Shown: positions 2 to 27,027 of the stretch, piece by piece
How the letters are laid out: every line of letters begins with the position of its first letter
Position numbering within the stretch: position 1 is the first letter of the stretch
DNA from: Candidatus Wukongarchaeum yapensis
Lineage (GTDB): Archaea > Asgardarchaeota > Wukongarchaeia > Wukongarchaeales > Wukongarchaeaceae
Length of the DNA stretch: 27,027 nucleotides
Reading direction: 5' to 3'
NCBI GenBank assembly: GCA_016840425.1
Contig: JAEOSI010000003.1
Location: 1 to 27,027 of the forward strand
Position numbers and translations under genes: made by a program
Notes under the pieces: generated by a model
Databases searched by the model: none
Told to the model about the DNA's origin: nothing
What the model saw: the letters and a program-made list of their open reading frames with translations, nothing else

Positions 2-97
2 GTGAAAGAGGCAGGAATCACGAAATCTGCGATGATTATTGTGGGAGACGTTCTTAATCCGCCTAAATTTCAGAGGTCGAAACTTTATGGAGAGTGA
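2..97 (+). CDS. cbiF: 3' end of cobalt-precorrin-4 C11-methyltransferase (5'-truncated by window edge)
   Basis: Manual translation from nt 2: VKEAGITKSAMIIVGDVLNPPKFQRSKLYGE*. This matches the CbiF C-terminal GI..TA.I.VG.VL....RS.LY pattern. The stop overlaps the cbiG ATG at 87. Confidence 0.85.
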   Translation: MKEAGITKSAMIIVGDVLNPPKFQRSKLYGE

Positions 98-8724: not shown

Positions 8725-8739
8725 TAAATAAAACCTCCG

Positions 8740-9414
8740 TTAGCTACTATTAATAGGCCTAATAGCCTCTGCAACTGCCCCCCCTCACAACATGATCTTC
8801 ATCTTTTAGTAACGGTTTCAGCTCATCTAAAGCTTCTGAGGAGCCTGTGCTTTTGAATAATTCCTTGATAGCCCGTACAGCTGCCTCTCTCATCTCCCAA
8901 TCTTCGTCTTTTAATAGAGGTTTTAGGAGGGCTAAAGCCTCTGAGGAGCCAGTTCCTTTGAATGTCTCTCCGATGGCTTGGGCGGTCACCTTACGAACGT
9001 ATGGCGTTTCGTTTTTTAGTTGTGTTTTTAGGGGGTTTAAAGCTTTTTTTTGTTCTGTTTTGATGGTGGTTTTTAATGTTTTTACTTTTTTTAAAAACAG
9101 TCGGTAGCGAATATGAGTCCGAAAGGACTTATTGAGTGTTTTTATTTCCTTTGCTCCTTCTAAAGGCTTTTCCAGTAGTACTTTTCCTTCTTCTGTCATC
9201 TCAATAAGCTCCATGACAGGTTTTTCATACGTTTGTGCCTTGGTTTTGCCGTGTTTTTTTAGGATCTATAGGTTTTTTTCGTAGAAGGATTGGGATGTTT
9301 CCATTATTTTCAGATATAGTTCTGCTAGGGGGAGTGGAGGAGTATGAATTTCTCATCCGCTTCGTCCCGCCTTATTTTCCCATGTTTTACGAGGGTTTCA
9401 ACAGTTTGCGCCAT
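8740..9414 (-). pseudogene. Decayed HEAT/PBS-repeat protein gene
   Basis: Repeats (S)EAL..LKPLLKDED..VR.AA..AI. An extra G in the G7 run at 8778-8784 shifts VRGAVAEAI to VRGGSCRGY*. Upstream coding-like sequence from ATG 9414 is broken by a frameshift near 9330 and an in-frame TAG at 9266-9268. Confidence 0.7.
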
Positions 9415-9434
9415 TCTACCCCAGAAAGGCGGGT

Positions 9435-10328
9435 TCATCTACTGCTCTGTCTTTTGGCATGTTCAAGTAACGCTTGAGGAGGGGTAGAGGTTTTGCTTTG
9501 AATTAAGGAAAATATTTCTTTCTTTGTAGAAGTATACGCCGCTTTTCCAGCACAGCAAATAGGAATAACATTATAAGATTCTGTTTTTTCGTTATAGCTT
9601 ATTTCTACTTCAATATCATATACATCTCTTATGTTGTCTATGGTAAGAACATCTTCAGCTAGACCTACCGAATATATTTTACCCAACTTAAGAAGCATGA
9701 ACTTATCGCAATATCGACTTGCTAAATTGAGGTCATGAGTTACTAAAACTACCGCTAAATTATTCTTTATGGCTAATTCCCTAATCAACTCCAATATTTC
9801 TAATTGATGATTTATATCCAAATGTAGTGTTGGTTCATCCAGCAATAGTACTTTTGGTTCCTGTGCTAACGCCCTAGCAATGATTACACGTTGCCTCTCA
9901 CCCCCACTAATTTCGTTTATTACTCTATTGGCAAGATGCTGAGTACTAGTAACTTTCATAGCATTTTTAACAACTTCTAAATCGTCTAATGTTTCTTTAC
10001 CGAATCTACTACGTAAATGAGGCATTCTACCCATTAAAACTATATCAAGAACAGTAAATGGAAAAACTATTACAGATTCCTGTGGAACAACGCCGAAATT
10101 TTTTGCAATCTCTTTTCTATCAAACTCACATATATTTTTGCCGTCAATAAGAACAGTTCCCACTTTTGGTTTCAATATCATACTTATACATCTAAGAAGT
10201 GTTGACTTTCCCGATCCATTAGGGCCGATAACGCCTACAACTTCTCCTTCGTTCACCTCAAAAGTTATTCCTTCCAATGCCTTAACGCCGTTGTAACTGA
10301 AACTAATACCATTTATATTCAGCTTCAT
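9435..10328 (-). CDS. btuD: Corrinoid/Fe-siderophore ABC importer ATPase (BtuD-like)
   Basis: GPNGSGKST, GVVPQE, VLMGR.PH, ISGGERQRV.IARALAQEP, LLLDEPT and HDLNLA..YCD. Confidence 0.85.
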   Translation of the reverse strand: MKLNINGISFSYNGVKALEGITFEVNEGEVVGVIGPNGSGKSTLLRCISMILKPKVGTVLIDGKNICEFDRKEIAKNFGVVPQESVIVFPFTVLDIVLMGRMPHLRSRFGKETLDDLEVVKNAMKVTSTQHLANRVINEISGGERQRVIIARALAQEPKVLLLDEPTLHLDINHQLEILELIRELAIKNNLAVVLVTHDLNLASRYCDKFMLLKLGKIYSVGLAEDVLTIDNIRDVYDIEVEISYNEKTESYNVIPICCAGKAAYTSTKKEIFSLIQSKTSTPPQALLEHAKRQSSR

Positions 10329-10329
10329 T

Positions 10330-11436
10330 TTACCACCCCATTAATCTCTTCCTGCTTCTTAATAGATATAAGAAGAAAGGTGCTCCTAGAACAGCAGTAA
10401 TTACTCCCACAGGAAGTTCTGTGGGCTGAATTATTGTCCTTGCTAATGTGTCCATCCATATCAAGAATATCGCTCCTACTAATCCCGATGATGGTAATAA
10501 AATGCGATGGTCTGGGCCTACAAAAATCCTCATAATATGAGGTACTATGATGCCTACAAACCCGATGATACCACTCACTGAAACTGCAGCCGCAGTTGTT
10601 AATGTTGAAAAAACCAAAACAGACTTTTTAACCGATTCCACATTTACACCCAGATTTAAAGCATGTTCCTCTCCCAACAACATGAGGTTTAGCTCACGAC
10701 TATAGTACAATGTACCCACAATTCCTAGGAGGATTAATGGGAGAGCGATATATACTTTATTCCAACTGCTAGCCCAAAATCCACCCAACAACCAGATTAT
10801 GAGGCTATGAAGCTCCTCGCCGGCAATATATTGCAAAAAGGCTACCATTGCCGAAAAGAATAACCCAACCGCAATACCTGCAAGTAAGAGGGTTTCTGTA
10901 GGTACTAATCCTTCAATCCTTGCGATATTGTAAACCAAAAATATCGCAATCAACGCGAAAATAAAAGCCATAAATGGAATTGCAAGAGAACCTTTCACAA
11001 AACTAAAGCCCAATACGATGGCTACGGCCGCTCCAAAAGCAGCGCCTGATGATAGGCCGAGAACATACGGTGAAGCTATAGGGTTTCTAAGTAAGCCTTG
11101 CATAGCACAGCCTGCAACCGCCAGTCCCGCACCAACCAATCCCGCCAATATAACCCGTGGTAACCTGACTTCTAACACTATTATCTCGTAGGTATCCGGC
11201 CAAGATTGAGGAAAATGAAACAATATTTTGAACACAGTGAGTTTTGGGATATCTACTGGGCCAACTGCAAGAGCAAGAATGAATGTTAAAATAAGCCCGA
11301 TTGATAAAGAAAAAATCGTTAAAAACCAGCGTAAATATTTCTTGGAGAAAAGAGCATCCATATCAATTTTTTCTTTTTCTTCAGTTCCATAGTCACTAAT
11401 TCCATACCTACCTATTATGTGCTCGCTTTTTCTCAT
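10330..11436 (-). CDS. btuC: FecCD/BtuC-family ABC permease
   Basis: VRLPRV, QGLLRNP.ASPY.LG.SSGAA.GA, LGEE.A..LGV, GIIGFVGI.VPH and ELPVGVITA.LGAPFF. An alternative start lies at ATG 11361. Confidence 0.88.
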   Translation of the reverse strand: MRKSEHIIGRYGISDYGTEEKEKIDMDALFSKKYLRWFLTIFSLSIGLILTFILALAVGPVDIPKLTVFKILFHFPQSWPDTYEIIVLEVRLPRVILAGLVGAGLAVAGCAMQGLLRNPIASPYVLGLSSGAAFGAAVAIVLGFSFVKGSLAIPFMAFIFALIAIFLVYNIARIEGLVPTETLLLAGIAVGLFFSAMVAFLQYIAGEELHSLIIWLLGGFWASSWNKVYIALPLILLGIVGTLYYSRELNLMLLGEEHALNLGVNVESVKKSVLVFSTLTTAAAVSVSGIIGFVGIIVPHIMRIFVGPDHRILLPSSGLVGAIFLIWMDTLARTIIQPTELPVGVITAVLGAPFFLYLLRSRKRLMGW

Positions 11437-11593
11437 TATATGACCTCAATACGCTCCTATACAGGGTCTACCTAATGTTCAAAAAAAGATGTAGATTGAT
11501 AAGATGTTTTTGCCAATTATCATGTTTGTCGTGTGTAGGTTTTTATGATTACCAGTATAGTATCGGTGTTTTCTCATTGCCCTTGCTTTATCG

Positions 11594-12592
11594 TTAATTT
11601 ACTGAAATACCATGCAAAATTGAGGTTAAACCCGAAACCAAAGAGGTTGGCTCTGAGAACAGGCTTGGGTGGAACCAGTAAGCAAAATATTCTATTCCCA
11701 GTACAGTCCTTGGGTTAGGGCTAATCCAGTCTACCTTGACTGTGTAAATCCGGTCATTCTGGACTGCATCTATAGCACCCCATCCGTCTCTAGCTTTTAC
11801 TTCTTCTATTGATGTAATATGTGAACCCCCCATTTCCTCTATTAACAAAATTACTTCAGGGTTCTTGTTAATGATATATTCGCTGTTAAGGATGGGGTTT
11901 CTCAAGGGTTCATCGCCTGCGATGTTAACTCCTCCGGCCATGAATATCAATTCATTTACGGAGTTCGGACCCCCTACCGTCATCAAGTCGGTCCCTACTT
12001 CAATGTATACCCTTGGTCTTTGGGTACTATTGAGTTCATCTGTTATGGCTGTTACAGCATCCGCTCTACTCTGCATATCGGCCACAAGAGCTTCAGCTTC
12101 GGATAATTTATCGACGACCAATCCAATTACCAGAATGTTATCCAGAATTCCATTAAAAGAAGCAGGGTCGAAGTATATACAGGGGATTTTATCTTCAATA
12201 GAGGATAACGCAGTTTCTGACCAATACCACCCCATTATTACATCGGGTTCTAACCCTATGATCATTTCTATATTGGGGTCCATTCCTCCACCGACATCTT
12301 CTGGGAGATCATTTTCCACTTCCGGTGGATAAGTACTATATCTATCTCTGCCTACAAGTTTATCCTCTGCACCTATTGCGTATAATGTTTCTGTGACTGA
12401 AGGACTCAGTGATACTATTCTTCCTGCGCTATCAGAGAGAGTCACCGTCCTTCCAAGATCATCGATTATTTTGATTTTTCCTTCTTCTTCGCCTTCCTCC
12501 GTTAGCGCATTACTCAGGAGGTATCCGCCACCAAATGCAACACCTATTAGTATGACTATTACTATCCACATTCTGAGTTCTTGCTTTTCCAA
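11594..12592 (-). CDS. btuF: Corrinoid substrate-binding protein (BtuF-like) with N-terminal TM anchor
   Basis: DDLGRTV, RIVSLSPSVTETLYAIG, NIEMIIGLEPD, EYIINKNPEVI, AV.N.RIY and PNPR. TTG start with AGGAGG 10 nt upstream. Corrinoid specificity is inferred from context. Confidence 0.82.
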   Translation of the reverse strand: MEKQELRMWIVIVILIGVAFGGGYLLSNALTEEGEEEGKIKIIDDLGRTVTLSDSAGRIVSLSPSVTETLYAIGAEDKLVGRDRYSTYPPEVENDLPEDVGGGMDPNIEMIIGLEPDVIMGWYWSETALSSIEDKIPCIYFDPASFNGILDNILVIGLVVDKLSEAEALVADMQSRADAVTAITDELNSTQRPRVYIEVGTDLMTVGGPNSVNELIFMAGGVNIAGDEPLRNPILNSEYIINKNPEVILLIEEMGGSHITSIEEVKARDGWGAIDAVQNDRIYTVKVDWISPNPRTVLGIEYFAYWFHPSLFSEPTSLVSGLTSILHGISVN

Positions 12593-12658
12593 GATTCTTT
12601 TGCCTCCTAAGAAACACCTTCTTCCTTTTCCGTGTTACTTAATTGCTATAAGTTTCTA

Positions 12659-12702
12659 ATAGGTTGGTTAACCTACCTATATAGGTTATTTAACCTGCTC
12701 CA
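12659..12702. promoter_or_regulatory. Tandem 22-bp palindromic operator-like sites
   Basis: ATAGGTTGGTTAACCTACCTAT (12659-12680) is immediately followed by the degenerate ATAGGTTATTTAACCTGCTCCA (12681-12702). Both lie between the btuF TATA box and its start. Confidence 0.75.
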
Positions 12703-12719
12703 CGTTGACGACTTGGAAG

Positions 12720-12734
12720 TATATAAACTTTACG
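12720..12734 (-). promoter_or_regulatory. BRE/TATA promoter of btuFCD
   Basis: Minus strand reads CGTAAAG-TTTATATA (TATA at 12720-12727), about 130 nt upstream of btuF. Confidence 0.6.
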
Positions 12735-12855
12735 TAGTACTATATTTGTAGTACGCTTATCCTATGGTGCCAAGAGGAGGACAAAACTTTACTTATCGCT
12801 ATATTTCTGTCCTCTTTTTCCGGATTTCTAGCTCTTTAAAAAATTTGGGGAATTA

Positions 12856-15800
12856 TTACAATTTTTCTTCGATTGTTGCTTCTATTTGCAGGTATGCTCG
12901 TTTGAGGTTTTCTTTCATTTTTTCATCAGTTTCCCAAAGTCCTCGTTCAATAGCTTCTAAAAGCTTTTCTATGATGTTCATCAAAGCATAAGGATTATGT
13001 TCTTCGAAAAATTCACGCATCTCCTCATCAAAAACGTACGTTTCTGCGATTTCGTCAAACATCCAATTCTCTATTATCTCGCTTGTAGCTTCCCAAAAAT
13101 AGATGTTATCAATGTATTTTGAGAAGGCGCCAGCGCCAGTGTAGCCGTGTTTTTTCATACCCTCTATCCATTTCGGGTTTATTACTACAGTCCTGAAAAC
13201 AATAGTTGCCTCTTCTTTTACACTTCTCGTTTTAATGCTTTCCAAGTCTGTGGTGTCGCCTTTAAAGGATTTAGGGGCTTTTCCGCTGTAAACCTTTACG
13301 GCGGCGATCATGCCTCCATGGTAGTCTGCCCAATCGTCCGCTTCAAAGATGTCCCATTCGTGACTGTCTTCATTTTTCACAGTAACCTCGATTTTACTCA
13401 ACCTCTTGACAAATTCTTCAGGGGATTTCAAACCATGCTTATTTTTGCCGTAGACATAAGATCCCCAGGTGACGTAGACTTTTGCAAGATCTTCTAAAGT
13501 TTCCCAGTTTTTTTGTTCTAATACTTCAGCGATTCCGGCTCCGTAGCTTCCAGGTTTTTCTCCAAAAATCCGGTATAATGATGTTTCTTTAGCCTCTTTT
13601 TCGGTCATGCCTTTTTCTATTTTCTCCGCCATTTCTTCTATGAAATGTTTTTTTATAAAGTTCAACTCTTCAGGTTCATCCAAGGTTGCGACTAATTGGA
13701 TTGCTTCATCAAGTAGATCTACAAGGTTTGGGAATGCGTCTCTAAAAAATCCACTAACCCTTAGTGTGACATCAATCCTTGGTCTTTTCAACTCCTCTAA
13801 AGGTATAACTTCTAACCCGATAACATAGTCTTTTTCATTATACTTCGGTTTCAACCCTAATAAGTAGAGAATTTCCGCTATATCTTCTCCTTTGGTTCTC
13901 ATTATTGGAGTGCCCCATACTACCATGCCTAAAGATTCGGGGTACTTTCCTGTCTCCTCTAAAACCCGTTTTAACAGATCATCTCCCATCTGTTTGCCGG
14001 CCATATAGGCAGCAAAAGTAGGTATTTCTCGGGGATCACAAGAGTAGAAGTTTCTGCCTGTAGGCAGAACGTTTGTGTTTCTTGTGGGGCATCCGCTTGG
14101 GCCTGCCGGGATGTATTGGCCTTCAATGCCTCTTAAAACGTTTTCGATCTCTAAGGTCACTAGTTCTAGTTTAGGAAGCACGATGTCTACAACGTGTTCT
14201 AAGATCTGCTGTATTTTTGGGGTTATTTTGAGGGTTTTTAGGTTGCTGGTTTCTTCTTTTTTAAAGCCGTGTTGGTAAAACTCTTTTAAAAGGCTTAATG
14301 AGAGGTTGTTTACTTCGTCTAAGAGTTGCGCGTTCATTTTGCCGAACTTTTCGTTGAAATTATCTATTTTTAGAATCTCTTTATAATCGTACCCTAAGCA
14401 TTCTGAAACACCTTCTCTTAGAGAGGGTACGTTTCCGTCAGCTGTTTTCATTATGGTGAAAACCGTTTCTACGAGCTTATCACCTTCTAAAGGTTGTCCT
14501 AAAACGTGTAATCCGTTATTTATCTCCCTTTCTTTAATTTCATACAGGTAAACGTGTAACTTTTCTAAAAAATCTTCAAAAAGCGAAAGATCAGCACCGT
14601 TTTCATTCTCAACTATGGCTATATTTTTCGCCTTTAAATCGTCTGTTAGTTTTAACTCTTCCACCATCTCAACTATGATTTTTTTCAAGGGGGGAATCCT
14701 TTTTTCGTCCACCTCTTTTGCCTCATGATATTCCTCGATGGATCTTTCGAGGCGTGAAAGGTTCTCGTAGAGGTCTGAAAAAGTCATGGGCGGGATCATA
14801 TGGTCCACGATTGTTGCATAACTTCTACGTTTCGCTTGGGTTCCCTCGCCAGGATTATTAATGATATAGGGATAGATGTTTGGAAGTTCCATGCAGATGT
14901 CAGGATAACAGTCACAAGAGAGACCGAAGCCCTTCCCGGGAAGCCATTCAAGGGTTCCATGTTTACCTACGTGTACTAGTACGTTTGCCTTGAAAACGTC
15001 TTTAACCCATTTATAATAAGCTATATAATGGTAGGGAGGGGGTAGATCAGGGTCATGGTAAACACTTGAGGGAGCCGCACCATACCCCCTAGGAGGTTGG
15101 AGTCCTATGAAAATATTCCCATTTGCAATCCCAGCAAATATCAAAACGCCGTCATAGTTGAAAAATTCTCCCGGAACTTCTCCCCAGTGCATCTTTAACT
15201 CCTTGCTTACTTTTGGAGAGAGTAAATTGAACCATTTCTCATAGTTTTCGCGTGTCGCGCGCCCTATTGTTTGTTTTAAATGTTTTTCTGTGATGAATCT
15301 CTGATCGCCTGTTGCGCATTCTGTTATTTTGTTTATAAGCTCTTCAGGGTTTTCTGGTATATGTTCTATGGTGAAGCCGCGTTCCTTCATGGCTTTTAAA
15401 ATGTTTATCACGCTTTGAGGAGCATCTAAGCCGAAAGCTGAACCGATTAAATCATTTCTCGGCGGGTAGTTGTGAAAAATTATAGCTACTCTTTCGTCGT
15501 TATCCGGTTTCTTTTTCAGTACAGCGTATCTGATAACCATTTGAACGATTTTTTCCATCCTTTCTTCGATAGGTTTTAACTTTAGTCTGTTTGTTAGATC
15601 CAAACTTTCTCTCGATAATTCTCGTGGTCTTCCAGCTAGGGGGAAATGGATTATTAGCCCGTCAAACTCGGGCATTACTGCGTTTATGATTACGTCAAGG
15701 GGGTTTAATCCTTGTACAGAATTTCTCCATTCCTCGATAGATCCTGTGGTGATTATGCCTTGCAATACAGGCACATTAAGTTCTTCCAAAAATGTCGCTT

Positions 15801-16602
15801 TATCTTCAATTAGGCTGGATGAAAATTGCATTTTGAAGAAAAAGGAAGTTGTATTAATTATTATATCAACTAGGGGTTTGTTTTCTTGGTAAAAATATTT
15901 CTTGATGGATTTTTCTATGCCTAAAGAACCAAACTCGTTTGGTGAAGCAAAAAATAGGGGAATAACATTAGCATCTGCTTCTTCAACCTTTTCAATTAAA
16001 TGGTCTATAAAGTCCAAATTATTAGAGAGCCAACATGTTCTATAAAAAAGCACGCCAATGGTAATCTTAGATGGGGAATAATTTTTATTGTTTAGGAGGT
16101 AATCTTCCAATTTTTCAAAATATTTATTTTTATAATAGATTCCTTGCCAAGGCATGCTTTCAGGTTCTTCATAGGGGACACTTTGGTCTGAAAACCGATT
16201 TGAGAGAAAAAGTAAAAGATTTTCGTAATTTTTCTCCCCTCCAAGGGCTAAATACTTAATAACTTCAAGCCTTATTTCATTAGGAACAGTAGAAACTTTA
16301 TCCAGTTCAGGCTGACTATCACCAATGGTAGGCAAAGGTATGAACGGCACATTGTAATTTTTTAGATGGGATGCAAGGGCATCGAAGAAAGGGCAAGCAT
16401 CTTTCCCTCCCATAAGTTTTGTGAAGACCACTGATGCTTCTTTTGTAAATTCGAAAAACTCTTCAATTTGCGCCTCTGTACTCACTACGTTAATAATTTT
16501 GAACTCTATACTAACCTTATCTTTTAAGGAGGAGAGAATATGGTTGAATATTAGATTATCATCCAGTGTCGAGGAAACAAAACCTATTTTAGCCAAGGTC
16601 AT
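12856..16602 (-). CDS. cobN: Cobaltochelatase large subunit CobN
   Basis: 1248 aa with MPEFDG, IGSAFGLD, LQPPRG, H.GKHGTLEWLPGK, YPYIINNPGEG.QAKRR, LPTGRNFY, RPRIDVT..SGFFRDAFP and NPKWIEGMK.HGY.GA. Confidence 0.95.
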   Translation of the reverse strand: MTLAKIGFVSSTLDDNLIFNHILSSLKDKVSIEFKIINVVSTEAQIEEFFEFTKEASVVFTKLMGGKDACPFFDALASHLKNYNVPFIPLPTIGDSQPELDKVSTVPNEIRLEVIKYLALGGEKNYENLLLFLSNRFSDQSVPYEEPESMPWQGIYYKNKYFEKLEDYLLNNKNYSPSKITIGVLFYRTCWLSNNLDFIDHLIEKVEEADANVIPLFFASPNEFGSLGIEKSIKKYFYQENKPLVDIIINTTSFFFKMQFSSSLIEDKATFLEELNVPVLQGIITTGSIEEWRNSVQGLNPLDVIINAVMPEFDGLIIHFPLAGRPRELSRESLDLTNRLKLKPIEERMEKIVQMVIRYAVLKKKPDNDERVAIIFHNYPPRNDLIGSAFGLDAPQSVINILKAMKERGFTIEHIPENPEELINKITECATGDQRFITEKHLKQTIGRATRENYEKWFNLLSPKVSKELKMHWGEVPGEFFNYDGVLIFAGIANGNIFIGLQPPRGYGAAPSSVYHDPDLPPPYHYIAYYKWVKDVFKANVLVHVGKHGTLEWLPGKGFGLSCDCYPDICMELPNIYPYIINNPGEGTQAKRRSYATIVDHMIPPMTFSDLYENLSRLERSIEEYHEAKEVDEKRIPPLKKIIVEMVEELKLTDDLKAKNIAIVENENGADLSLFEDFLEKLHVYLYEIKEREINNGLHVLGQPLEGDKLVETVFTIMKTADGNVPSLREGVSECLGYDYKEILKIDNFNEKFGKMNAQLLDEVNNLSLSLLKEFYQHGFKKEETSNLKTLKITPKIQQILEHVVDIVLPKLELVTLEIENVLRGIEGQYIPAGPSGCPTRNTNVLPTGRNFYSCDPREIPTFAAYMAGKQMGDDLLKRVLEETGKYPESLGMVVWGTPIMRTKGEDIAEILYLLGLKPKYNEKDYVIGLEVIPLEELKRPRIDVTLRVSGFFRDAFPNLVDLLDEAIQLVATLDEPEELNFIKKHFIEEMAEKIEKGMTEKEAKETSLYRIFGEKPGSYGAGIAEVLEQKNWETLEDLAKVYVTWGSYVYGKNKHGLKSPEEFVKRLSKIEVTVKNEDSHEWDIFEADDWADYHGGMIAAVKVYSGKAPKSFKGDTTDLESIKTRSVKEEATIVFRTVVINPKWIEGMKKHGYTGAGAFSKYIDNIYFWEATSEIIENWMFDEIAETYVFDEEMREFFEEHNPYALMNIIEKLLEAIERGLWETDEKMKENLKRAYLQIEATIEEKL

Positions 16603-16709
16603 TGATCAAATACCCCCTAAAAGTAAATTGAGCGAATTATTCACAACTATCAAAAATGTGAAATTAACAATGATTTCGAAATTTTAAACGAAGAAGAATA
16701 TGAGGAGGA

Positions 16710-18824
16710 TTAGGGCTGATTAAGTGAAAAAATATCGTCTAATAAGCTTCGCTCAAAAGAAACGATCGATGTAAGTTTTTCAGGTTCTAGAGAATCAACA
16801 TGATAATATTTAGCGGCACTCTTTTCAGCAAATTCTTTAATTAAATTGAGCCCGTAAAACCTTTTATCTTCTGTATCGATGATTATTGTTCTAATTAAAT
16901 CCTTTTTTAGCTGTAAAGCGCATTTGTCTAGATCTTTTAAAACATCATTAAAAAGGGCTACGTTGCCTTTTCCGTCTGTAATAAGAACCATCATCGGTAT
17001 GACTCTGTATCCTTTTAATAACTCCGTTTTAATCAACTCTATACCTTTAACTATTCCGGCGGGTAAAGGTGTTTTCCCGCCAGTCGGAAGTTCTTTAAGA
17101 CGTTTAAGCGCTAATTCAACGCTTTTAGTTGGGGGTAGTATTACTTCAGCTTTGTTGCCTTTGAACATAATCATTGCAACTTTATCCCTGCGTCGATACG
17201 TATCGTTGAGGAGAGAAAATATGGCTCCTTTTACGGCGATCATCCTATTATTTACGCCCATGGAACCACTTGCGTCTACAACAAACATGATTAGAGATGC
17301 TGCTCTTCCTTCCCTCACTTTTTCTCGAAGATCAGACGAGTGTATATCTATTTTCCCCTTTTTAAAAGAGTGGGTTACAGCGGCTCTAAGCGTGGCATCT
17401 ACTGCAATATCTTTTACCTTACCTGTTGGAATTCTAGGCCTAACATATTTTCCACGAGAAAAGGTAGATATCGATTTCAGCCTTCTACCATTACATGGCC
17501 TCAATGAGCGATCTTTTCTCCAGCCTAGTATTTTTTGAGCGTCTCCAATGGGAGGACCTATTTCGAAAACTTTATCGATATCGGTAAAACCGTCAGCTGG
17601 ATGCTTTTCCTCTGATTTTTCGTCATATTTTTCTTTTCCTCTGTTTGGCTTTTCTTCTCCTTTTCCTTCTTTCTTCGTTTCTTCTTCTTCTTCTTCTTTT
17701 TTCTTTTCATGGTCTGGATTTTCTGAATCGTTTTCAGGCTGATTAGGTGGAGGGTTGTTTGGGTTTCTCTGAGTTTTAGGGGGTTGTTGTTCTTTTGCTT
17801 TATTAAAAGCTTCTTCAAGGGCTTCTTTGCTTATTTCTGGTTCTTCGAAGGGTTTTTTCCTCATCCTATGGCCTAAAACAAGCTCTAGGGCTTCTTTGAC
17901 ATCGCTTTCTTTTACTTCTGTTCTACCGTTAAACGCTGCTATTGTTTTTGCTGTTTTCACGGTAATAATGTCCGCCCTGTGACCTTCCGTACCGAGGGCT
18001 ATACAAACCCAAGAAATTTGGCGTAAAAGATCTTCAGAGATGGTAATGCTTGGAAGTAAGCTTTTTGCCTTCTTTATCTTTTGAACTAGCTCTTTTTGAG
18101 CACTTTCAAAACATTTCTTAAAAGCCCACGGACCTGCGTCAAACTCTTCCCGGAGTTTAGCTACCTCCATTCTTTGTTTTACGTCTTTAATCCCCTCAAC
18201 TTTAACACTGAGACCAAATCTATCAATAATTTGAGGCCTTAACTCTCCTTCCTCAGGGTTCATAGTTCCTATGAGAAGAAACTTGGAAGGGTGACTGACT
18301 GAGATTCCTTCCCTTTCAACGATGTTTACTCCCATGGCGGCAGCGTCGAGTAATAGGTCTGAGATGTGGTCTTCAAGCAAATTAACTTCGTCTATGTAGA
18401 GTATGCCTCTATTTGCTTCTGCCAATATGGCTGGTTCTAACGCTTTTATTCCCTCCTTGAGGGCCTTTTCTATGTTAAGAGTACCTACAACCCGATCCTC
18501 AGTAGCGTTTATTGGCAAGGTAACCAAGGGCATTTTTCGCTTTCTAACCGGGAGTTTTTCCCTAGATTCGTATCGTTTTTGGCATGATTGACACATTTCT
18601 TCTATATTGTGTGGGTTACAGTTGAAAGGACAGTCCGCTACAACCTCTATTTCTTCTAAGAGGTCTGTTAAGGCCCGTGCAATTGTGGATTTGCCTGTCC
18701 CTTTCTCCCCTCTGATTAAAACACCGCCTATTTTGGGGTTAATAGCGTTTAGTATCAGAGCTTTTTTCATCATTTCTTGGTCAACAATCGCGACAAAGGG
18801 GTATATAGGACGATCATAACTCAT
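16710..18824 (-). CDS. chlD: ChlI/ChlD-type chelatase subunit (AAA+ domain, acidic linker, vWA); likely CobN partner
   Basis: [44 protein letters not shown], Pro/Glu/Lys linker, and vWA with VDASGSM, TGGKTPL and ITDGKGN. ATG 18824 follows AGGTGG; the track start is 18863. Confidence 0.9.
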
Positions 18825-18936
18825 CTTATTTTTCCACCTTTTGATCGGTATAGAAATGTCCAAGAAGAAATATTTTCTAAATTAATGGAGGGGGAGGATT
18901 CTCACTGGCTTTTAGTCTTTTTTATCCACAGTTTTT

Positions 18937-18958
18937 ATAGGAAGGATAACCTACCTAT
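18937..18958. promoter_or_regulatory. 22-bp palindromic operator-like site
   Basis: ATAGGAAGGATAACCTACCTAT, located between the TATA at 18985-18992 and the chlD start. Confidence 0.75.
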
Positions 18959-18984
18959 ACTTCTAGACAAAATGCGTTAAAGTA

Positions 18985-18992
18985 TTTATAAA
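18985..18992 (-). promoter_or_regulatory. TATA box for chlD-cobN
   Basis: TTTATAAA preceded on the minus strand by purine-rich AAGAAAGA. Confidence 0.55.
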
Positions 18993-19128
18993 TCTTTCTT
19001 CAAAACTAGAAACGTTACTTAAAGTCTAATAGCAGGAATAATAACCAAGCTATTGAAAACTATGAAAAAAACACATACTAAGGAATTATGCGATATTTTT
19101 ACGGTCAATCACGTTTTTTTTTTGATAT

Positions 19129-19150
19129 AAAAGTAGGATAACCTTCCTAT
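19129..19150. promoter_or_regulatory. 22-bp operator-like site with degenerate left arm
   Basis: AAAAGTAGGATAACCTTCCTAT, about 48 bp upstream of TTTTATAA (19199-19206). Confidence 0.6.
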
Positions 19151-19279
19151 TGCTTTAGAAAGGATTTCCTACTTAACTTTAAATACGTAATTAGAAGCTT
19201 TTATAAGGGCGTGTAGAGACATTTTGGAATGTGATGGTTTTTATCATCACGACTTTAGGAGGAGGGAAGCGAATGACTA

Positions 19280-19477
19280 TTGGAAAGTTTTATTTCCTCA
19301 TGCCTTCAGGGAAGATTAGTTGACGTATACAGTGGAGATGGAGCTTGGTTCCACAGTGAAGTCTTCAGCTGTGTAGACGGAGTACTAAGTCTTAAAAGCG
19401 GTATCGCCTATATTAATGTTGCAGTAGAGAAGATCATAGGCATTTGGGGGACTTGTAAAGAAGAATACGAGAAATGA
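19280..19477 (+). CDS. Small beta-rich Sm/LSm-like protein (resembles the methanogen MM0924 family)
   Basis: MESFI..LQGRLVDVYSG...F..EV.SC.DGVL.L....V.VEKIIGIW pattern. AGGAGG at 19257-19262 and TATA at 19199-19206. Family assignment is from memory. Confidence 0.65.
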   Translation: MESFISSCLQGRLVDVYSGDGAWFHSEVFSCVDGVLSLKSGIAYINVAVEKIIGIWGTCKEEYEK

Positions 19478-19564
19478 GAATTGCCGAAGTAAAAGTAGGT
19501 CATGCTACTTGTTCTTAAGGAAATTCTGAAGATATTCGCTAGTAACAAAAAATAGAGATAATAT

Positions 19565-19635
19565 GTGGTGGATGGTTTCATTGAAAATTCACCTAACTGC
19601 CTGTCAAGACATCCATCACCCACCGCTGTTTTTTT
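19565..19635 (+). terminator. Stem-loop followed by a T-run
   Basis: GTGGTGGATG (19565-19574) pairs with CATCCATCAC (19610-19619), 10 bp including one G-U. T7 at 19629-19635. Confidence 0.4.
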
Positions 19636-19778
19636 GACTGTTAAGCTTTTAGGTCTTTTCGCCCTTTGTTCTTTGAGAAACGTTTTTTGAGGAAGCAGGT
19701 TTTGGAAGCTTTTTATAATATAAATAAGGATATCTGATGTTTCAAAGAAATTTTTGGTCTTTTGAACCATAGGTTTTT

Positions 19779-19800
19779 ATAGGTGGGATAACCTGCCTAT
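19779..19800. promoter_or_regulatory. 22-bp palindromic operator-like site
   Basis: ATAGGTGGGATAACCTGCCTAT upstream of the ABC-2 ATPase. Confidence 0.72.
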
Positions 19801-19974
19801 ATTCCTAGACAAATAGTAACATATCTAAAGTGCTTCTCTTTGAGTTTTGAATTTAAAAATCAAAAGCCAGAAATAGGAAAGGCAAAAAAAGAAAACTTTT
19901 GTTTTTTTATAAGAAGATTTTAGCAGATTTGCTTGGATAACTGGTTTGAAAAGTTTGAAGGGGTTTTGCCGTAA

Positions 19975-20979
19975 ATGATTAGTGATGTTAATAGTGTTAG
20001 TATTAGCGAAGGTGAGGAGGATAAGGAGGATGTGATTGTTAGTGTGGAGGGACTGGTTCACAAGTATGGAGATTTTACCGCTGTTGATGGGGTTTCTTTT
20101 ACTGTTAGGAGGGGGGAAGTTTTTAGCCTTTTAGGGCCTAATGGTGCCGGTAAAACCACCGCTATTAATGCTTTGATCGGGTTACTGAAACCTACAAGCG
20201 GCGAGATTTACTTGGATGGTATAAACGTCATTAAGAACCCGGAAAAGGTAAAGGGCAGCATAGGAATAGTTTTTCAAGAGACCATTTTGGATAGAGAAAT
20301 GACTGTTTGGGAGAGCATGGAGTTTCACGGCAAACTTTACAAGATACCCAAAGAGGAAAGGCATGAAAAGATATGGGAGCTACTTGAACTTGTTGAACTG
20401 AGTGAGAAGGTAGACGAGATAACGAGAAGGTTGAGCGGGGGCATGAAGAGAAGGCTTGAAATTGCTCGAGCTTTAATGACTGAGCCTACGATCTTGTTTT
20501 TAGATGAACCTACTTTGGGCCTTGATCCCCAGGGCAGAGTGCTTATTTGGGAACAGATTAGGAAGGTAAACGAGAGGGGCACAACAATGTTTCTAACAAC
20601 ACATTACATGGAAGAAGCTGATCGATTGGCAGACAGGGTTTTCATTATGGATCATGGTAAAATCCTTATTTCTGGAACTCCTGAAAGGCTAAAGGACAAG
20701 CTTGGGAAAGATGTTATCTTTCTTTATTTAGCGGAGAAAGAGAGGGCGAGGGAAGTTTTAGAGGGATTTGATTTTATCAATGAAATTGTTGAGTTTGATA
20801 AAGGATTAGAGATCGTGCTTAACGGTTCAGGGGTTCCTTTGGCGCCGAGGATTATGGAGACTTTGGATAGTTTGAAACCTAAGTTAGCTGTAGATGGCGT
20901 GAATATAAAGAGACCGTCGCTTGATGATGTTTTCCTGTATTTTACAGGCAGAAAAATTAGGGAAACTGACATATCCTGA
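19975..20979 (+). CDS. ABC exporter ATPase (DrrA/NodI-like)
   Basis: GPNGAGKTT, GIVFQE, LSGGMKRRLEIARAL, LFLDEPTLGLDP, LTTHYMEEAD.LADR and C-terminal PSLDDVFL..TG. Confidence 0.92.
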   Translation: MISDVNSVSISEGEEDKEDVIVSVEGLVHKYGDFTAVDGVSFTVRRGEVFSLLGPNGAGKTTAINALIGLLKPTSGEIYLDGINVIKNPEKVKGSIGIVFQETILDREMTVWESMEFHGKLYKIPKEERHEKIWELLELVELSEKVDEITRRLSGGMKRRLEIARALMTEPTILFLDEPTLGLDPQGRVLIWEQIRKVNERGTTMFLTTHYMEEADRLADRVFIMDHGKILISGTPERLKDKLGKDVIFLYLAEKERAREVLEGFDFINEIVEFDKGLEIVLNGSGVPLAPRIMETLDSLKPKLAVDGVNIKRPSLDDVFLYFTGRKIRETDIS

Positions 20980-21040
20980 CTTATTTTTGAGTTTTCAGTT
21001 GATTGAAAGATTTTTTGTCTCTTTAAAGGAGGTTTTTATT

Positions 21041-21871
21041 GTGCATGGGGCTTGGACAATTTTTTGGCGGGAAATGGTAAAATATAAGAGAAGAATGATG
21101 ACCCTTTTTGTAACGATTGTTCAGCCTGTTTTATGGATTTTATTATTTGGTGTTGCTTTAGGCTCTACTATTCCAGAAAAGGAAGGTAGCATTTCTTACG
21201 TGAACTTTCTTATTCCGGGGATCATTGGTTTAAGCATCCTTTTCAGTTCGTTGTTTGCAAGTTTTAACGTTTTGCTCGATAAAGAGTTTGGTCTTACGAA
21301 AGAGATTTTAATGAGTCCTACTTCGAGAAATCAGGCTATGGTAGGTTATAGTTTGAGCGGTTTGGCTAAAAGCTTGATACAGGCCTTTGCCGTACTATTA
21401 TTAGGCGTTTTTTTGATCGTATCCGGTAGTGAGAAACTCGTATTGTTTGGAGAAGGTGAGGGTTTTTTTGACACTTTTATATGGTTTTTAACATTTGTTC
21501 TTATAATCGTCATTTTTTCCTTTGGGTTCTTATTTATGGCTATGGCTATTGCGGCTAGGATGACTAGCCATGGGGCATTACAAGCCCTTACGACTATGCT
21601 GACTTTACCACTATTTTTTGCATCCGAAGCGTTGTACCCGTCGAGGGAGTTCCCGTTTTGGCTTGCAATAATCGCCAAGATAAACCCTTTAACCTATTGT
21701 GTTAGGGTTCTCCAGATCTCCCTTTTGGGCTATGATTTCAGGTATGGTGACAATCCTCCATTTCATTACGAGTTTGCCGACATCGTTACGGGATTTATTA
21801 TGGTAGGACTGTTTACTCTTATTATGTTTTATCTTGCAATAAAATCGTTCCAAAAAATAAAACTATTTTAG
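21041..21871 (+). CDS. ABC-2 type exporter permease (DrrB-like)
   Basis: IFWRE, QPVLWILLFG, YVNFLIPGI, D.EFG..KEIL.SP, FF.S.ALYP and INPLTY.V with multiple TM segments. GTG 21041 follows AAGGAGG; the track start is 20921. Confidence 0.92.
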   Translation: MHGAWTIFWREMVKYKRRMMTLFVTIVQPVLWILLFGVALGSTIPEKEGSISYVNFLIPGIIGLSILFSSLFASFNVLLDKEFGLTKEILMSPTSRNQAMVGYSLSGLAKSLIQAFAVLLLGVFLIVSGSEKLVLFGEGEGFFDTFIWFLTFVLIIVIFSFGFLFMAMAIAARMTSHGALQALTTMLTLPLFFASEALYPSREFPFWLAIIAKINPLTYCVRVLQISLLGYDFRYGDNPPFHYEFADIVTGFIMVGLFTLIMFYLAIKSFQKIKLF

Positions 21872-22000
21872 CAAAGATCGAAAACTATGAACTCTCCCAA
21901 TCCAACAGTAGAAATAGGTATAAGGGTTTAAGCGTTTTAAACTGTTTGGTTAATTTTAAGGCTTGAAGTTGAAGTTTTGTTTTTTGGTTGGTTTTTGGTT

Positions 22001-23044
22001 ATGGATGTTCTTTTTTTTACTGAGTGGAATGGTATAGCACATTTATTGTTTGTCGAGATGGCTATAATAGGGTTGGCTGTTTTTCTCGATCTTTTGTTCG
22101 GGGAGCCCCCTTTGAAGGTTCATCCTGTGGTCTGGATGGGTGCTTTGATTGATAAGCTAGGGAAGTTTTTCAGTACAAGTGTTCCTGAGAAGCAGAGGAT
22201 GAGGGGTGTGTTTCTTGCTTTAACGTGCATATTTTTTGTGGCAGTTCCTGTGTTTTTCTTGTCGATTCTTATGTGGCGGTATTTGGATATTTGGAGTTAT
22301 ATAGTGGTTTCTGCTTTTCTTTTGAAAGCTACTTTTGCTGTGAGGTGTTTGAGGGAGCATGTTTACACAGTGAGAGATTGTTTATATGAGGGGGATATTG
22401 AGGGGGCTCGGGGTATTCTTCCGGGGTTGGTGGGCCGTGATCCCAGTAAACTCGGTGAGAGGGAGATTATTAGTGCGACTATAGAGTCTACAGCGGAAAG
22501 TACTGTAGACAGTTTTACTTCTCCTATTTTTTATTATGTTCTTTTTGGGCTTTTGGGTGCTTATGTTTACCGTATGATAAATACTTTGGACAGCATGGTG
22601 GGGCACAAAACTGAGGAGTATGTTCGTTATGGGTGGTTTTCTGCTAAGATAGATGAGTTAGTAAATTACCTCCCTTCACGCATTACGTCGATTTTCATAG
22701 TTTTATCAGCGTTTTTAAGTGGGTATGATTGGCGTAAAAGTTGGGGAATATTGAGAAGAGATAGGTACAGTCTTGAGAGTAGGGTCGGGGGTTGGAGCAT
22801 GGCCCCTATGGCAGGAGCCCTTGGGGTGCAACTTGAAAAGCCGGAGTTTTACACCCTTGGTGATCCTAAAGAAGAGATGGCTGTTGAGCATATAACGCGA
22901 GCGTGGAGGGTTACTTTCGTGACAATAATATTGTTTTTCGTGATGGTGGTTCCTATAATCCTCCTATTAATGGACCTCTTTGACTTATATTTTTATACTC
23001 ATCTTTTTTCGCCATTATCTGATGAACCCTTATGGCTATTTTAA
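22001..23044 (+). CDS. cbiB: Adenosylcobinamide-phosphate synthase CbiB
   Basis: D.LFGEPP..HPVVWMG, LVGRDP, IES.AES.VD..TSPIFY, YRMINTLDSMVG, FSAKIDE..NY.PSR and MAGALGVQL.K..Y.LG. ATG 22001 is preferred over 21977. Confidence 0.94.
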   Translation: MDVLFFTEWNGIAHLLFVEMAIIGLAVFLDLLFGEPPLKVHPVVWMGALIDKLGKFFSTSVPEKQRMRGVFLALTCIFFVAVPVFFLSILMWRYLDIWSYIVVSAFLLKATFAVRCLREHVYTVRDCLYEGDIEGARGILPGLVGRDPSKLGEREIISATIESTAESTVDSFTSPIFYYVLFGLLGAYVYRMINTLDSMVGHKTEEYVRYGWFSAKIDELVNYLPSRITSIFIVLSAFLSGYDWRKSWGILRRDRYSLESRVGGWSMAPMAGALGVQLEKPEFYTLGDPKEEMAVEHITRAWRVTFVTIILFFVMVVPIILLLMDLFDLYFYTHLFSPLSDEPLWLF

Positions 23045-23052
23045 CGTTGTTT

Positions 23053-24612
23053 TCAACTTTCCATTTTCCTGGCTCTTTGGTGCATTTTTCTCCAGTATAT
23101 GTCTGAGCCAAAGTAGGCGGTTCCTGTGATGATTCCCGTAATTACGAGGGATAGGATGCTGTTATATAGGTCCTTTTCAAAGGGCGAAAGGATCAAAACA
23201 GATGAAACAACGCCTAGCATTACCGTGAGGGCTATTTGGAAGAAATTTGAACGGATTTGTTCATAGCTTTCAATGGCGCTGTCTAAAAGTTCTAGTTTAT
23301 CCATGATTGATTGAAACATGTTATTGATTAGCATTGTTTCTTTTCCGTGTTCAAGACGGAGATGCGTCATTCTGTGTCCAACTATTTTGATGGTGTAAAA
23401 CTCGTCAAGAGCTTGCCCCATGAACTCTTTTAAGACCATTATTTCGCCTGAACCCATGTCTGCGATGTTCTTTCTGGTGAGGAAAAAATCGAGAAACCTG
23501 AGCAAAAATCGTTGCATTTGCAAGAGTTCAAGAGCGGAGAAGCCTGGGATTATTTCCAGTAAGGTTTCATATTCAACGCTGGTTCCGTTTTCTTTTGCTT
23601 TTTCGGCGAGAATTTCTTGGGATTTTTTGGATAAAAGTAGGATCGTGGAACCTATGGTGCTGAGATATGCTATGTCTGATCTTTCGCTTATGTTTGGACG
23701 TAGAAGGTCCTCAGTGATATCGTCATTTATTACGTCATATTCGACGTCTTTCATATGGGCCATGATTTGATAGAACTGTTTCGGGTGGCTATCAACTATT
23801 TCTATGGCGTTTTCCTTGTCTTCTACTTCTGTTAAAACTACGACGTAGGGATATATAATATAAGGTTCGTAACGGAGGCTTTCTGAAAGTTTTTCGCTTG
23901 ATGAAAAGCGCGATTTGTTGACCCGATTAATTACGGATGAAACGTAGTACCAAACGAGTTCTGAAAAGCTTTTATTCTTCATATTTATCGATTTTTTACC
24001 CTTTTCTTTCATAGCTTCAACGACTTTCGTGAGCTCTTTGTTCAAATTGGAGTACTCTTCAATAAGTTGTATCGGGGCCTTTATGTTGAGGGTTTCTTCC
24101 TCGACTGAGGGTATGATTTGGAGCTCTGCCAGTTTTCTAGAGGTTACTGGTTCTTCAATATCCATCCAAAAGCTTAGCACTACTGCTCCATACCTGTTTA
24201 ATGTAACGTAGACATCTACATCTGCGTAGTTCTCAAAGCCAAGAACCAGAATTTTTATCCCTTGAAGGCGGAGGCGTGCGTATTGACCGCTTTCGAAATA
24301 TTCCTCATCTAAGTACAAGAAATCTGACTTCTGAAAAGCTTCAAGGTGTTCATAGGTGTCATCTTTGATTTCTTGGCTTTCTCCTCCTTCTTGAATACCT
24401 TTTATTTGGATTTCTCCAACTCCCTCGTCCCTTCTCTCTGGCGGCAAGTATGAGAGCAGTCCACGACATATAGGCGAATCATACAAGTTTTTTGCCGCCG
24501 GTTTTATGTCTTCAATTGAAGAACCTAAGTCGAACGTTACTTGCCATATGATTTTGGATCTTGAGAAAACAAGTTTATCTTCCCCTTGATTAGAATTAGG
24601 AAAAGAAGCCAA
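23053..24612 (-). CDS. CorA-like architecture membrane protein (large soluble domain, long helix, two C-terminal TMs) without GMN motif
   Basis: 519 aa. The hydrophobic segments FFQIALTVMLGVVSSVLILSPF and SILSLVITGIITGTAYFG follow a heptad-like helix. TTG start after AAGGAAGG. Confidence 0.6.
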   Translation of the reverse strand: MASFPNSNQGEDKLVFSRSKIIWQVTFDLGSSIEDIKPAAKNLYDSPICRGLLSYLPPERRDEGVGEIQIKGIQEGGESQEIKDDTYEHLEAFQKSDFLYLDEEYFESGQYARLRLQGIKILVLGFENYADVDVYVTLNRYGAVVLSFWMDIEEPVTSRKLAELQIIPSVEEETLNIKAPIQLIEEYSNLNKELTKVVEAMKEKGKKSINMKNKSFSELVWYYVSSVINRVNKSRFSSSEKLSESLRYEPYIIYPYVVVLTEVEDKENAIEIVDSHPKQFYQIMAHMKDVEYDVINDDITEDLLRPNISERSDIAYLSTIGSTILLLSKKSQEILAEKAKENGTSVEYETLLEIIPGFSALELLQMQRFLLRFLDFFLTRKNIADMGSGEIMVLKEFMGQALDEFYTIKIVGHRMTHLRLEHGKETMLINNMFQSIMDKLELLDSAIESYEQIRSNFFQIALTVMLGVVSSVLILSPFEKDLYNSILSLVITGIITGTAYFGSDIYWRKMHQRARKMES

Positions 24613-25132: not shown

Positions 25133-27027
25133 ATGAAATACAAAAATGGTAAACTGCTCGTGGTTTCTGCTTTTCTGTGCTTTCTTCTAGTTCTTTCAGT
25201 TTCAAGTGTTGTAGTTCAACCTAGTGTGAGTGTCGGTGCTTGGTCTGATGATTTACCAACAGTCGATGGAAGCATTAGTGAAGACGACAAGAGAAGAAGC
25301 GACCATCTTCAAATCTCAGATGTACCAATCATGACATTTGGAGGTGTGCTTGAGTGGACGAGTGATTTCGACATCTTTTTAGCAGCTAATGACTCACAAC
25401 TTTATATCGGTATGAACATCACTAACATTCCCTTCTTAGCCAGCGTAGTCATGGGACCAAGCGGTCCGACTGAAGATCCAGCAAATGCAACATTTATTTC
25501 TATATACTTTGATAATGATAATAACAACACTATTGATAACTTAGAGGATGCGAAAAGCGTTTATTTCCTTAATGAAATCACATACGTCGGAGAAGATCAG
25601 TTCTGGAACGCTTCAGATCCCAATCCTGAAAGATGGGGATACGCATCCGACTCTGAATCTGGAGACGGTCCTGATCCTCAAAACATTACAGCCCTAGGTG
25701 TAAAACACTCAAATCCTACCGAACAAGGTAGTATAGGTAACCTCACTGTAGAACTCTTTATGCATTGGAGAGACGATTTACAGGAACGTGATGGCGGAGG
25801 GCTAGTCAGTGGATCGCCTGTTAGTTTTGCAATCAGATATGAAGCTATGGTCAATGCTGTACTCGCAGGAAACGGTAACGGTCCTGGTCAAATGGATAAC
25901 AGGTTATTTGGAGAAACAACCGGAAATGTTTTTAGGGACGAAAACGATGCAAGTAACTTCGATTCCGTAACATGGACCTTTAGTGAGACTCTAAATCTGT
26001 TCTCAGCTGATGGATATCTTACTCAAACTGAGAAAGATAATAGCGGTCCTTACGTGCCATTTTCCGACGTGCAAATCTACGGTATGGTTGCATATGAAAG
26101 TACTGTGGACATTTATGTTGTGAACAACGCTACTCATCTTTATGTTGGTGTTGAGATGTCCGATGTGCCTTATCTTGCTAACTTGAATTGGACAGGTGGT
26201 TCTTTTGGAGCTGGACTTCATAACTTCACAACGATAAGAGTGGTTTTCGATAACGATAACAATAATACTCTTGACTATAAAGAAGATGCAAAACTAGTAA
26301 CGCATGGAAACAACTCCTTTTCATTGGCAGACGATCAGTTGTTTAACACTACAGTAGAGTGGGATCCCCTCGGAGCTGGTTTCACTTCGGATTCACAGAA
26401 CGAACACGGTTTCCCTCCAGAACAGGGAGACATTAGTGCTTTTGACGCAATGCATTCTAATCCATCATATCAAGGCGCAATCGGTGTTCTAACTATGGAA
26501 CTAACCATGCCTCTGGCTGACGATGCCTCTGGATACGATGGAGAAGGTCTTTCAGATACAGTAGGATTCTCAATATACTACCAAGCAATAGTCAACTTTA
26601 ACACATCAACTGGTAACAGTCCTGAGTTTGAAAACTTCTTTCTTGGAGCGACTGCAGGCGGGGCCTTTAGTGAAAATGATGCTTCAGAATTTCACGATTT
26701 GGTGATAAAAGGTGCTGACAATACGGATCCGACCATCAATGAACCAGATGATGTTACCTATGAGGAAGGTGAGACTGGAAACAGCATTGAATGGGCAGCT
26801 ACTGACACTAACCCGTACAAATATAGCATAGCTAAGGATGGTTTAGTTGTTGAAGAGGGTTATTGGGAAAGCGGCGTAGCAATTAGTATAGATGTTGATG
26901 GACTCGATGTTGGTAATTATACCTATGTTTGCAGTGTTAACGATACGGGTGGCAATAGTGCGAGCGACGAGGTGGACGTAACGGTAACCACGCCTGAAGA
27001 AGTATCAGAATTTTCATACGGATACGC
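25133..27027 (+). CDS. Secreted/surface glycoprotein, 3'-truncated: signal peptide, two DOMON/CBM9-like repeats, Ig-like domain
   Basis: Frame open for 631 codons to the window end after GGAGG. Signal MKYKNGKLLVVSAFLCFLLVLSVSS. Repeated FDNDNNNT.D..EDAK and HSNP..QG.IG.LT.EL. The Ig-like unit reads DPTINEPDDVTYEEGETGNSIEW...GNSASDEVDVTV. Many N-x-S/T sequons. Confidence 0.88.
   Translation, partial: MKYKNGKLLVVSAFLCFLLVLSVSSVVVQPSVSVGAWSDDLPTVDGSISEDDKRRSDHLQISDVPIMTFGGVLEWTSDFDIFLAANDSQLYIGMNITNIPFLASVVMGPSGPTEDPANATFISIYFDNDNNNTIDNLEDAKSVYFLNEITYVGEDQFWNASDPNPERWGYASDSESGDGPDPQNITALGVKHSNPTEQGSIGNLTVELFMHWRDDLQERDGGGLVSGSPVSFAIRYEAMVNAVLAGNGNGPGQMDNRLFGETTGNVFRDENDASNFDSVTWTFSETLNLFSADGYLTQTEKDNSGPYVPFSDVQIYGMVAYESTVDIYVVNNATHLYVGVEMSDVPYLANLNWTGGSFGAGLHNFTTIRVVFDNDNNNTLDYKEDAKLVTHGNNSFSLADDQLFNTTVEWDPLGAGFTSDSQNEHGFPPEQGDISAFDAMHSNPSYQGAIGVLTMELTMPLADDASGYDGEGLSDTVGFSIYYQAIVNFNTSTGNSPEFENFFLGATAGGAFSENDASEFHDLVIKGADNTDPTINEPDDVTYEEGETGNSIEWAATDTNPYKYSIAKDGLVVEEGYWESGVAISIDVDGLDVGNYTYVCSVNDTGGNSASDEVDVTVTTPEEVSEFSYGY

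Follow-up and report, generated by a model that had tools for sequence, protein, structure and literature searches.

The cobalamin gene cluster of Candidatus Wukongarchaeum yapensis, an Asgard archaeon, carries a DrrA/DrrB-type ABC-2 transporter pair whose linkage to B12 genes, proposed in the initial annotation, is borne out by comparison with other genomes. Orthologues with 71–91% identity occupy two chromosomal sites, at each of which cobN-chlD and a gene for salvage adjoin them, and the same set of partners is found in a published bacterial operon that is repressed by B12. The genes are real and the operator in their vicinity is real; the connection is uncertain. We tentatively favor the reading that DrrAB acts as a waste valve for by-products of corrinoid salvage or synthesis.

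The window, i.e. the whole stretch of 27,027 nucleotides analyzed here, is contig C69 of the 2.16-Mb host genome (G000). Its gene content is that of a cobalamin cluster with cbi genes at the left end. The minus strand encodes a CbiZ-like protein, a BtuFCD-like importer, CobN, and a ChlI/ChlD fusion, and the plus strand encodes DrrA, DrrB, and CbiB (Table 1). The pair is intact and lies, as described before, between the divergent chlD-cobN unit (18863–12856) and cbiB. A TATA/BRE scan of the drrB–cbiB gap gave no plus-strand TATA, and cbiB is probably co-transcribed after drrB. A 120-amino acid minus-strand ORF (19408–19770) was rejected as spurious, having no family match and running antisense into the neighboring MM0924 cassette.

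Table 1. Coordinates of the transporter pair, its operator copies, and the neighboring B12 genes in the window
Feature	Coordinates	Strand	Family assignment and remarks
cbiZ/cbiS-like amidohydrolase	7486–8724	-	NF038002 E 1e-37, below cut-off; 59% to CbiZ of sister-lineage locus L041
btuF-btuC-btuD-type importer	9435–12592	-	Behind operator 12659–12680 and a weaker adjacent copy
cobN, cobaltochelatase large subunit	12856–16602	-	TIGR02257 over cut-off
chlI/chlD fusion (chlD), putative cobaltochelatase motor	16710–18863	-	TIGR02442 over cut-off; divergent from drrAB
Operator copy at chlD promoter	18937–18958		Just downstream of minus-strand BRE-TATA (18992)
MM0924/DUF6897 (Sm-like) cassette	19004–19660	+	NF041655 over cut-off; own operator copy 19129–19150
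Operator copy nearest drrA, 22-bp palindrome	19779–19800		Within 62-nt repeat 19752–19813 of chlD promoter region
drrA-type ABC ATPase, 334 aa, DrrA1-3 C-terminal domain	19975–20979	+	TIGR01188, PF00005, PF13732
drrB-type ABC-2 permease, 276 aa	21041–21871	+	PF01061, PF12698; predicted type V fold
cbiB	21977–23044	+	TIGR00380 over cut-off; 3' of drrB

Near-identical cbiG copies open the window (39–995) and contig C178 of the same genome (3–827), and the two contigs probably represent one cob cluster of ∼44 kb. The same DrrB is also present on a 44,949-bp contig. A HEAT-repeat-like ORF between cbiZ and btuD (8759–9214) contains an internal repeat of 64 nt and resembles a fragment. Beyond cbiB, the window encodes a 519-amino acid protein with a hydrophobic C terminus and no Pfam or NCBIfam match (23053–24612); a second, open-ended protein has internal repeats and a signal-like N terminus (25133–27025).

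DrrA scores 315.9 bits against TIGR01188 (cut-off 312.45), and its C-terminal domain scores 27.6 against PF13732 (cut-off 27.4). The motifs of the nucleotide-binding domain are complete (Walker A, Q-loop, LSGGM signature, Walker B, D-loop, and H-loop), and the start agrees with the starts of orthologues. For DrrB, the start is most likely the GTG at 21041, which is preceded by AAGGAGG. DrrB matches PF01061 with an E value of 5e-27 (95 bits); against TIGR01247 it reaches 127 bits, under the cut-off of 223, which leaves it outside the DrrB subfamily defined by that model. A sequence search of the PDB using DrrB returned no match. The best Foldseek matches of the AlphaFold model (pLDDT 80.7) all belong to type V at 12–17% identity and include ABCH, ABCG2, ABCG25, Pdr5, NosY, KpsM, Wzm, and TarG; MRP1/ABCC1 and ABCD4, which have a type IV fold, are not among the listed matches. 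By family, motifs, and predicted fold, DrrAB is thus a predicted ATP-driven type V exporter and an ordinary member of its family, with DrrA and DrrB expected to contact each other as a textbook pair.

The predicted type V fold fixes neither cargo nor direction. The fold matches include NosY, KpsM, Wzm, and TarG, and DrrAB could instead assist the importer or the chelatase in a NosFY-like manner, be it as accessory motor, as flippase, or as a transporter working inward, or remove surplus cobalt complexes; induction together with the importer would fit a place on the uptake side. However, the pair is not accompanied by a gene for an accessory extracellular partner, and its sequence is closest to the DrrA/DrrB efflux families, so that we regard such roles as improbable.

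The 22-bp palindrome that precedes drrA occurs at four sites in the window (12659, 18937, 19129, and 19779), compared with 0.01 expected. A matrix trained without the 19129 and 19779 copies scores the 19779 site at 26.5 bits. At a threshold of 18 bits, the genome contains seven sites and three shuffled genomes contain 0. Six of the seven are located inside the cob cluster; those outside the window lie in the cbiT/cbiX–hemA gap, in the cobQ/trpD-like gap, and in a second MM0924 cassette that adjoins an integrase-like gene. Judged by this placement, the palindrome marks a B12 regulon. At chlD and btuF, it overlaps the predicted start, a placing that resembles that of a repressor site. An Rfam scan of the whole window for riboswitches gave no match.

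The near-perfect operator copy before drrAB reported in the initial annotation is therefore a real palindrome, as its score indicates; the further claim that the pair is under the same operator as the importer and chelatase genes may or may not hold. The 19779 site is 174 nt away from the drrA ATG and forms one half of a 62-nt direct repeat, the other half of which is at the chlD promoter. TATA candidates surround it on the plus strand (19710–19719, 19774, 19852, and 19904) and, with a chlD-like geometry, on the minus strand (19829), so that the direction served by the site is not fixed. An operator is present before the drrA orthologues of the congener G001 and of sister-lineage loci L041, L091, and L092, and has decayed in one sister species (L093–L095) that kept both AT boxes and all genes. 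Control of drrAB by the 19779 site is uncertain because the site duplicates the chlD promoter copy and has decayed in this gene-keeping species.

In the sister lineage, the 300-bp divergent spacer contains a single operator that aligns with the chlD copy and shares with it an AT box, which is missing at the drrA-side copy. This arrangement favors an explanation that we consider quite possible, namely that DrrAB is a general drug, lipid, or peptide exporter of the usual archaeal kind, held beside chlD by a shared short divergent promoter. In that case, the targets of the operator would be chlD-cobN and the cob gene farther downstream, and any effect of B12 on the pump would be incidental. The loss of the site in one sister species points the same way and also speaks against a waste valve. 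Tandem operator copies at one promoter, moreover, occur elsewhere in the regulon, and the host genome contains nine matches to ABC-2 permeases.

Two further observations concern the regulon. On contig C11 of G001 (L121, 8707–13000), cbiX is preceded by a tandem pair of operator copies with a distance of 66 nt, and an additional ABC-ATPase-like ORF, absent from G000, lies between cbiX and hemA. In the species with the decayed operator, a cobW-like gene in three pieces (L093, 16238–17872) lies 4–5 kb from the cobN-chlD-drrAB-cbiZ block.

The MM0924 cassette (∼650 bp), which lies between chlD and drrA, is absent from G001 and from sister-lineage locus L041. For this reason, the Sm-like gene has to be removed from the import/synthesis/export module to which it had tentatively been assigned; by comparison of the loci, the cassette is a lineage-specific insertion outside the conserved module. 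A paralogue with 79% identity lies outside the cob cluster on contig C192 of the host genome (1614–2285), with an operator and beside the integrase-like gene. The window copy carries one extra base just past the ATG used by the C192 copy and would need TTG at 19280, or is decaying.

Relatives of DrrB at 90–91% identity are followed by those of the sister lineage at 71–74%, after which identity falls to 38%. When DrrB and ChlD were compared with metagenome and genome contigs, the only matches came from the same species or its congener. Among 1.84 billion representatives searched with DrrB, a single cluster was close and the next full-length matches were at ≤37%, and there is therefore no wide cob-linked DrrB clade to test.

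The sister lineage has the same block at a different place. There, cobN-chlD and drrA-drrB-cbiZ are arranged divergently between the genes for pantoate kinase and SfsA, away from the large cob cluster, and cbiZ occupies the place that cbiB has after drrB in the host. CobN, ChlID, the ABC-2 pair, and CbiZ are contiguous in L041 and L093, and only 18 nt separate drrB from cbiZ in L096. The pantoate kinase/sfsA site is empty in the host genome. Because the block stands in the cob cluster here and at the pantoate kinase/sfsA site in the sister lineage, cobN-chlD and drrA-drrB occur as a unit at two chromosomal sites. B12 genes flank this block on both sides in both lineages. Both facts weigh against a pump that is merely held in place by a shared promoter. 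Between the lineages, DrrA and DrrB are 78 and 72% identical, compared with 78% for CobN; this similar divergence, like the retention of the block at two sites, would argue for a waste valve. However, the two lineages are ∼80% identical in their housekeeping proteins, so that the conserved linkage has a shallow time depth, and its restriction to these two lineages counts against the waste valve.

The congener G001 offers a further view of the second site (contig C118; L152, 1–1200). Here, cobN-chlD is gone, and the first 63 codons of drrA are fused to the end of drrB, whereas cbiZ remains, open to the contig end. That drrAB was internally deleted where cobN-chlD was lost would be consistent with a waste valve for the chelatase. 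The remnant could also result from redundancy with the cluster copy or from a mosaic contig. The remnant part of C118 is 96.7% identical to sister-lineage L096, and the far part is 92–95% like G000, suggesting either a recombined block or a chimeric contig. The G001 contig with chlD ends inside the operator, and the missing drrAB-cbiB beside chlD there thus carries no weight.

Outside this close clade, the pump keeps other company. In the ATPase tree, DrrA groups (100/99) with a clade that has Bathyarchaeia as its named members and with four genomes of an Asgard family (f3); the nearest outside permease homologues have 35–38% identity. The Bathyarchaeia-type homologues are located behind PadR or toxin–antitoxin genes, and MarR also heads some outside homologues. 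Those of f3 adjoin 2-oxoacid oxidoreductase genes, with a corrinoid protein and RACo gene 3–7 kb away; cobN, cobQ, and cbiB were not found in the f3 genomes carrying them (93–98% complete). No 22-bp operator was detected upstream of the Bathyarchaeia and f3 homologues. Ralstonia-type DrrB matches showed no link to the megaplasmid cob cluster. The nearest named relatives of CobN outside the lineage are Methanococcales proteins (50–54% identity). Given the non-B12 contexts of the outside homologues and the other relatives of CobN, trees and neighborhoods indicate a local recruitment of the pump, whose family does not follow the distribution of B12 producers. The expectation that homologues cluster with cobN and cbi genes across taxa thus holds for the close clade, the only one linked to cob genes; all homologues beyond it stand in unrelated contexts without the motif, and none that track cobamide producers across taxa were found. 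The PadR-headed or oxidoreductase-linked, motif-free sister clades and the different nearest relatives of CobN and DrrAB are what would be expected of a general exporter, and the contexts of the outside homologues weigh against a waste valve.

The wider DrrAB clade is repeatedly found near 2-oxoacid:ferredoxin oxidoreductase genes (L039, 6618–9871; L055, 10409–14150; L051, 1509–9979), which possibly represent its older neighborhood. The window CobN is ∼30% like most other Asgard CobN proteins, which form a separate, stand-alone chlD-cobN group.

No ABC-2 permease was found near cbiB at 20 Asgard loci or near cobN at 25 loci from other Asgard families, several of which have short flanks, and at five plasmid loci, which again argues against a waste valve. 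In Asgard family f9, however, 10 of 26 chlD-cobN loci, which are kin and not independent, have an ABC-2 permease within 3.3 kb, and four of these 10 permeases are directly upstream of and co-oriented with chlD-cobN. The background in f9 is 3–8 permease matches per 3.3–4.1-Mb genome. The f9 pairs represent approximately four unrelated subtypes; they were rejected as orthologues of the window pair (21–22% permease identity for those that align, separate clade). The proximity of unrelated pairs to chlD-cobN would, by analogy, support a waste valve, but two of the subtypes have 62–74% orthologues far from cobN, which counts against it. In f9, chlD-cobN has no adjoining cob genes and is often beside ABC-2 pairs (L081–L086, L108–L115, and L153–L164), and cbiB had no match in the six f9 genomes covered by the cbiB search.

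The closest published parallel is corrinoid operon-2 of Dehalobacter restrictus PER-K23 (Dehre_0281–0292), which is syntenic in Acetobacterium woodii and contains an importer, two CbiZ, CobN, two chelatase subunits, a radical SAM protein, and an ABC-2 pair, to which the authors assign no function (PMC4285132). At low corrinoid, the ATPase Dehre_0291 was 29-fold more abundant in this strain, a corrinoid auxotroph (PMC4285132). Operon-2 and the window (within 7486–21871) share a BtuFCD-like importer, CbiZ, CobN, ChlI/D, an ABC-2 pair, and a control element linked to B12, which by analogy argues for a waste valve. Unlike the window, with its DNA operator and divergent layout, operon-2 is a single operon headed by a riboswitch and includes a radical SAM gene; none was called around drrAB in the window or at the sister-lineage loci. 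Compared by annotation and length, the Dehalobacter pair is NodI/NodJ-like (279 and 244 amino acids), whereas the window pair is DrrA/DrrB-like (334 and 276 amino acids) with a nodJ score of 25 bits. The Dehalobacter strain is also an auxotroph, in contrast to the window organism with its full synthesis pathway. The window module is an archaeal, operator-led variant of this published, functionally unsolved arrangement. That the same set of partners recurs under riboswitch control, together with an ABC-2 pair of different appearance, speaks against a mere promoter neighbor. We consider it conceivable but doubtful that this lineage, f9, and Dehalobacter/Acetobacterium each recruited ABC-2 pumps independently to give their CobN-ChlID modules a dedicated exit for corrins or tetrapyrroles.

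DrrAB of Streptomyces peucetius and DrrABC of Mycobacterium tuberculosis (PMC11539658) likewise combine an ATPase having the DrrA C-terminal domain with an ABC-2 permease of type V fold; in contrast, the window permease is below the TIGR01247 cut-off, the surroundings hold no anthracycline or PDIM cluster, and the neighbors are B12 genes. ATP-driven removal of metal-free tetrapyrroles has parallels in ABCG2, which carries protoporphyrin IX and also has a type V fold (PMC6750912), and in MacAB-TolC (PMC4263509). The ABCG2 precedent would support a waste valve; identity to the window pair is 13–16%, MacB is another ABC type that needs TolC, and neither system is tied to corrinoid genes.

The initial annotation had proposed that the pair exports cobamides, intermediates, or metal-free tetrapyrroles. 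Intermediates and metal-free tetrapyrroles are plausible cargoes. Secretion of finished cobamide or cobinamide that feeds neighbors appears very improbable to us, even though the host genome encodes a long de novo B12 synthesis pathway and precedents exist in eukaryotes. No prokaryotic B12 exporter is known (PMC13440303), and MRP1, a multidrug-type ABC pump, exports B12 in mammals (PMC11311337). MRP1/ABCC1 and ABCD4 resemble the proposed exporter as B12-moving ABC pumps, the former first described as multidrug efflux, but both are eukaryotic, and for ABCG2, the relative with a type V fold, no B12 export was found (PMC11311337). The organism itself appears to have a large B12 demand, with 10 B12-binding-domain matches in its genome. 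Because the same operator heads the importer, co-induction of a cobamide exporter would result in a futile cycle. Finished-cobamide export for cross-feeding is unsupported because the analogous Dehalobacter pump is co-induced with an importer during starvation, and this in a corrinoid auxotroph.

For the waste valve, we propose the following scheme. Tree and synteny suggest that the archaeal lineage took the pair from a non-B12 ABC-2 clade and placed it back-to-back with cobN-chlD, in front of the salvage gene cbiZ or cbiB. When cobamide is scarce, a repressor would leave the operator, and importer, chelatase, salvage enzyme, and pump would be induced together, as in the Dehalobacter operon. 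The pump would then remove tetrapyrroles that CobN-ChlID handles and that lack a metal or carry the wrong one, which we consider the most likely cargo, or possibly the base–nucleotide fragment cut off by CbiZ. It would not be a route for giving away finished B12.

The role of CobN-ChlID in organisms with early cobalt insertion is unresolved, and a function in salvage has been speculated (PMC8305020). A pump that recurs with the CobN-ChlID chelatase and CbiZ provides a concrete test of both B12 export and the role of CobN-ChlID, and both questions become testable because Dehalobacter and Acetobacterium offer analogues that can be cultured. If DrrAB is a general exporter that happens to lie here, it would be one more pump of the multidrug type and of little interest. 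If, however, such pumps were recruited repeatedly, they would be the first class of exporters known for the corrinoid pathway in prokaryotes, and they would actively supply sediments with corrinoid precursors or lower ligands.
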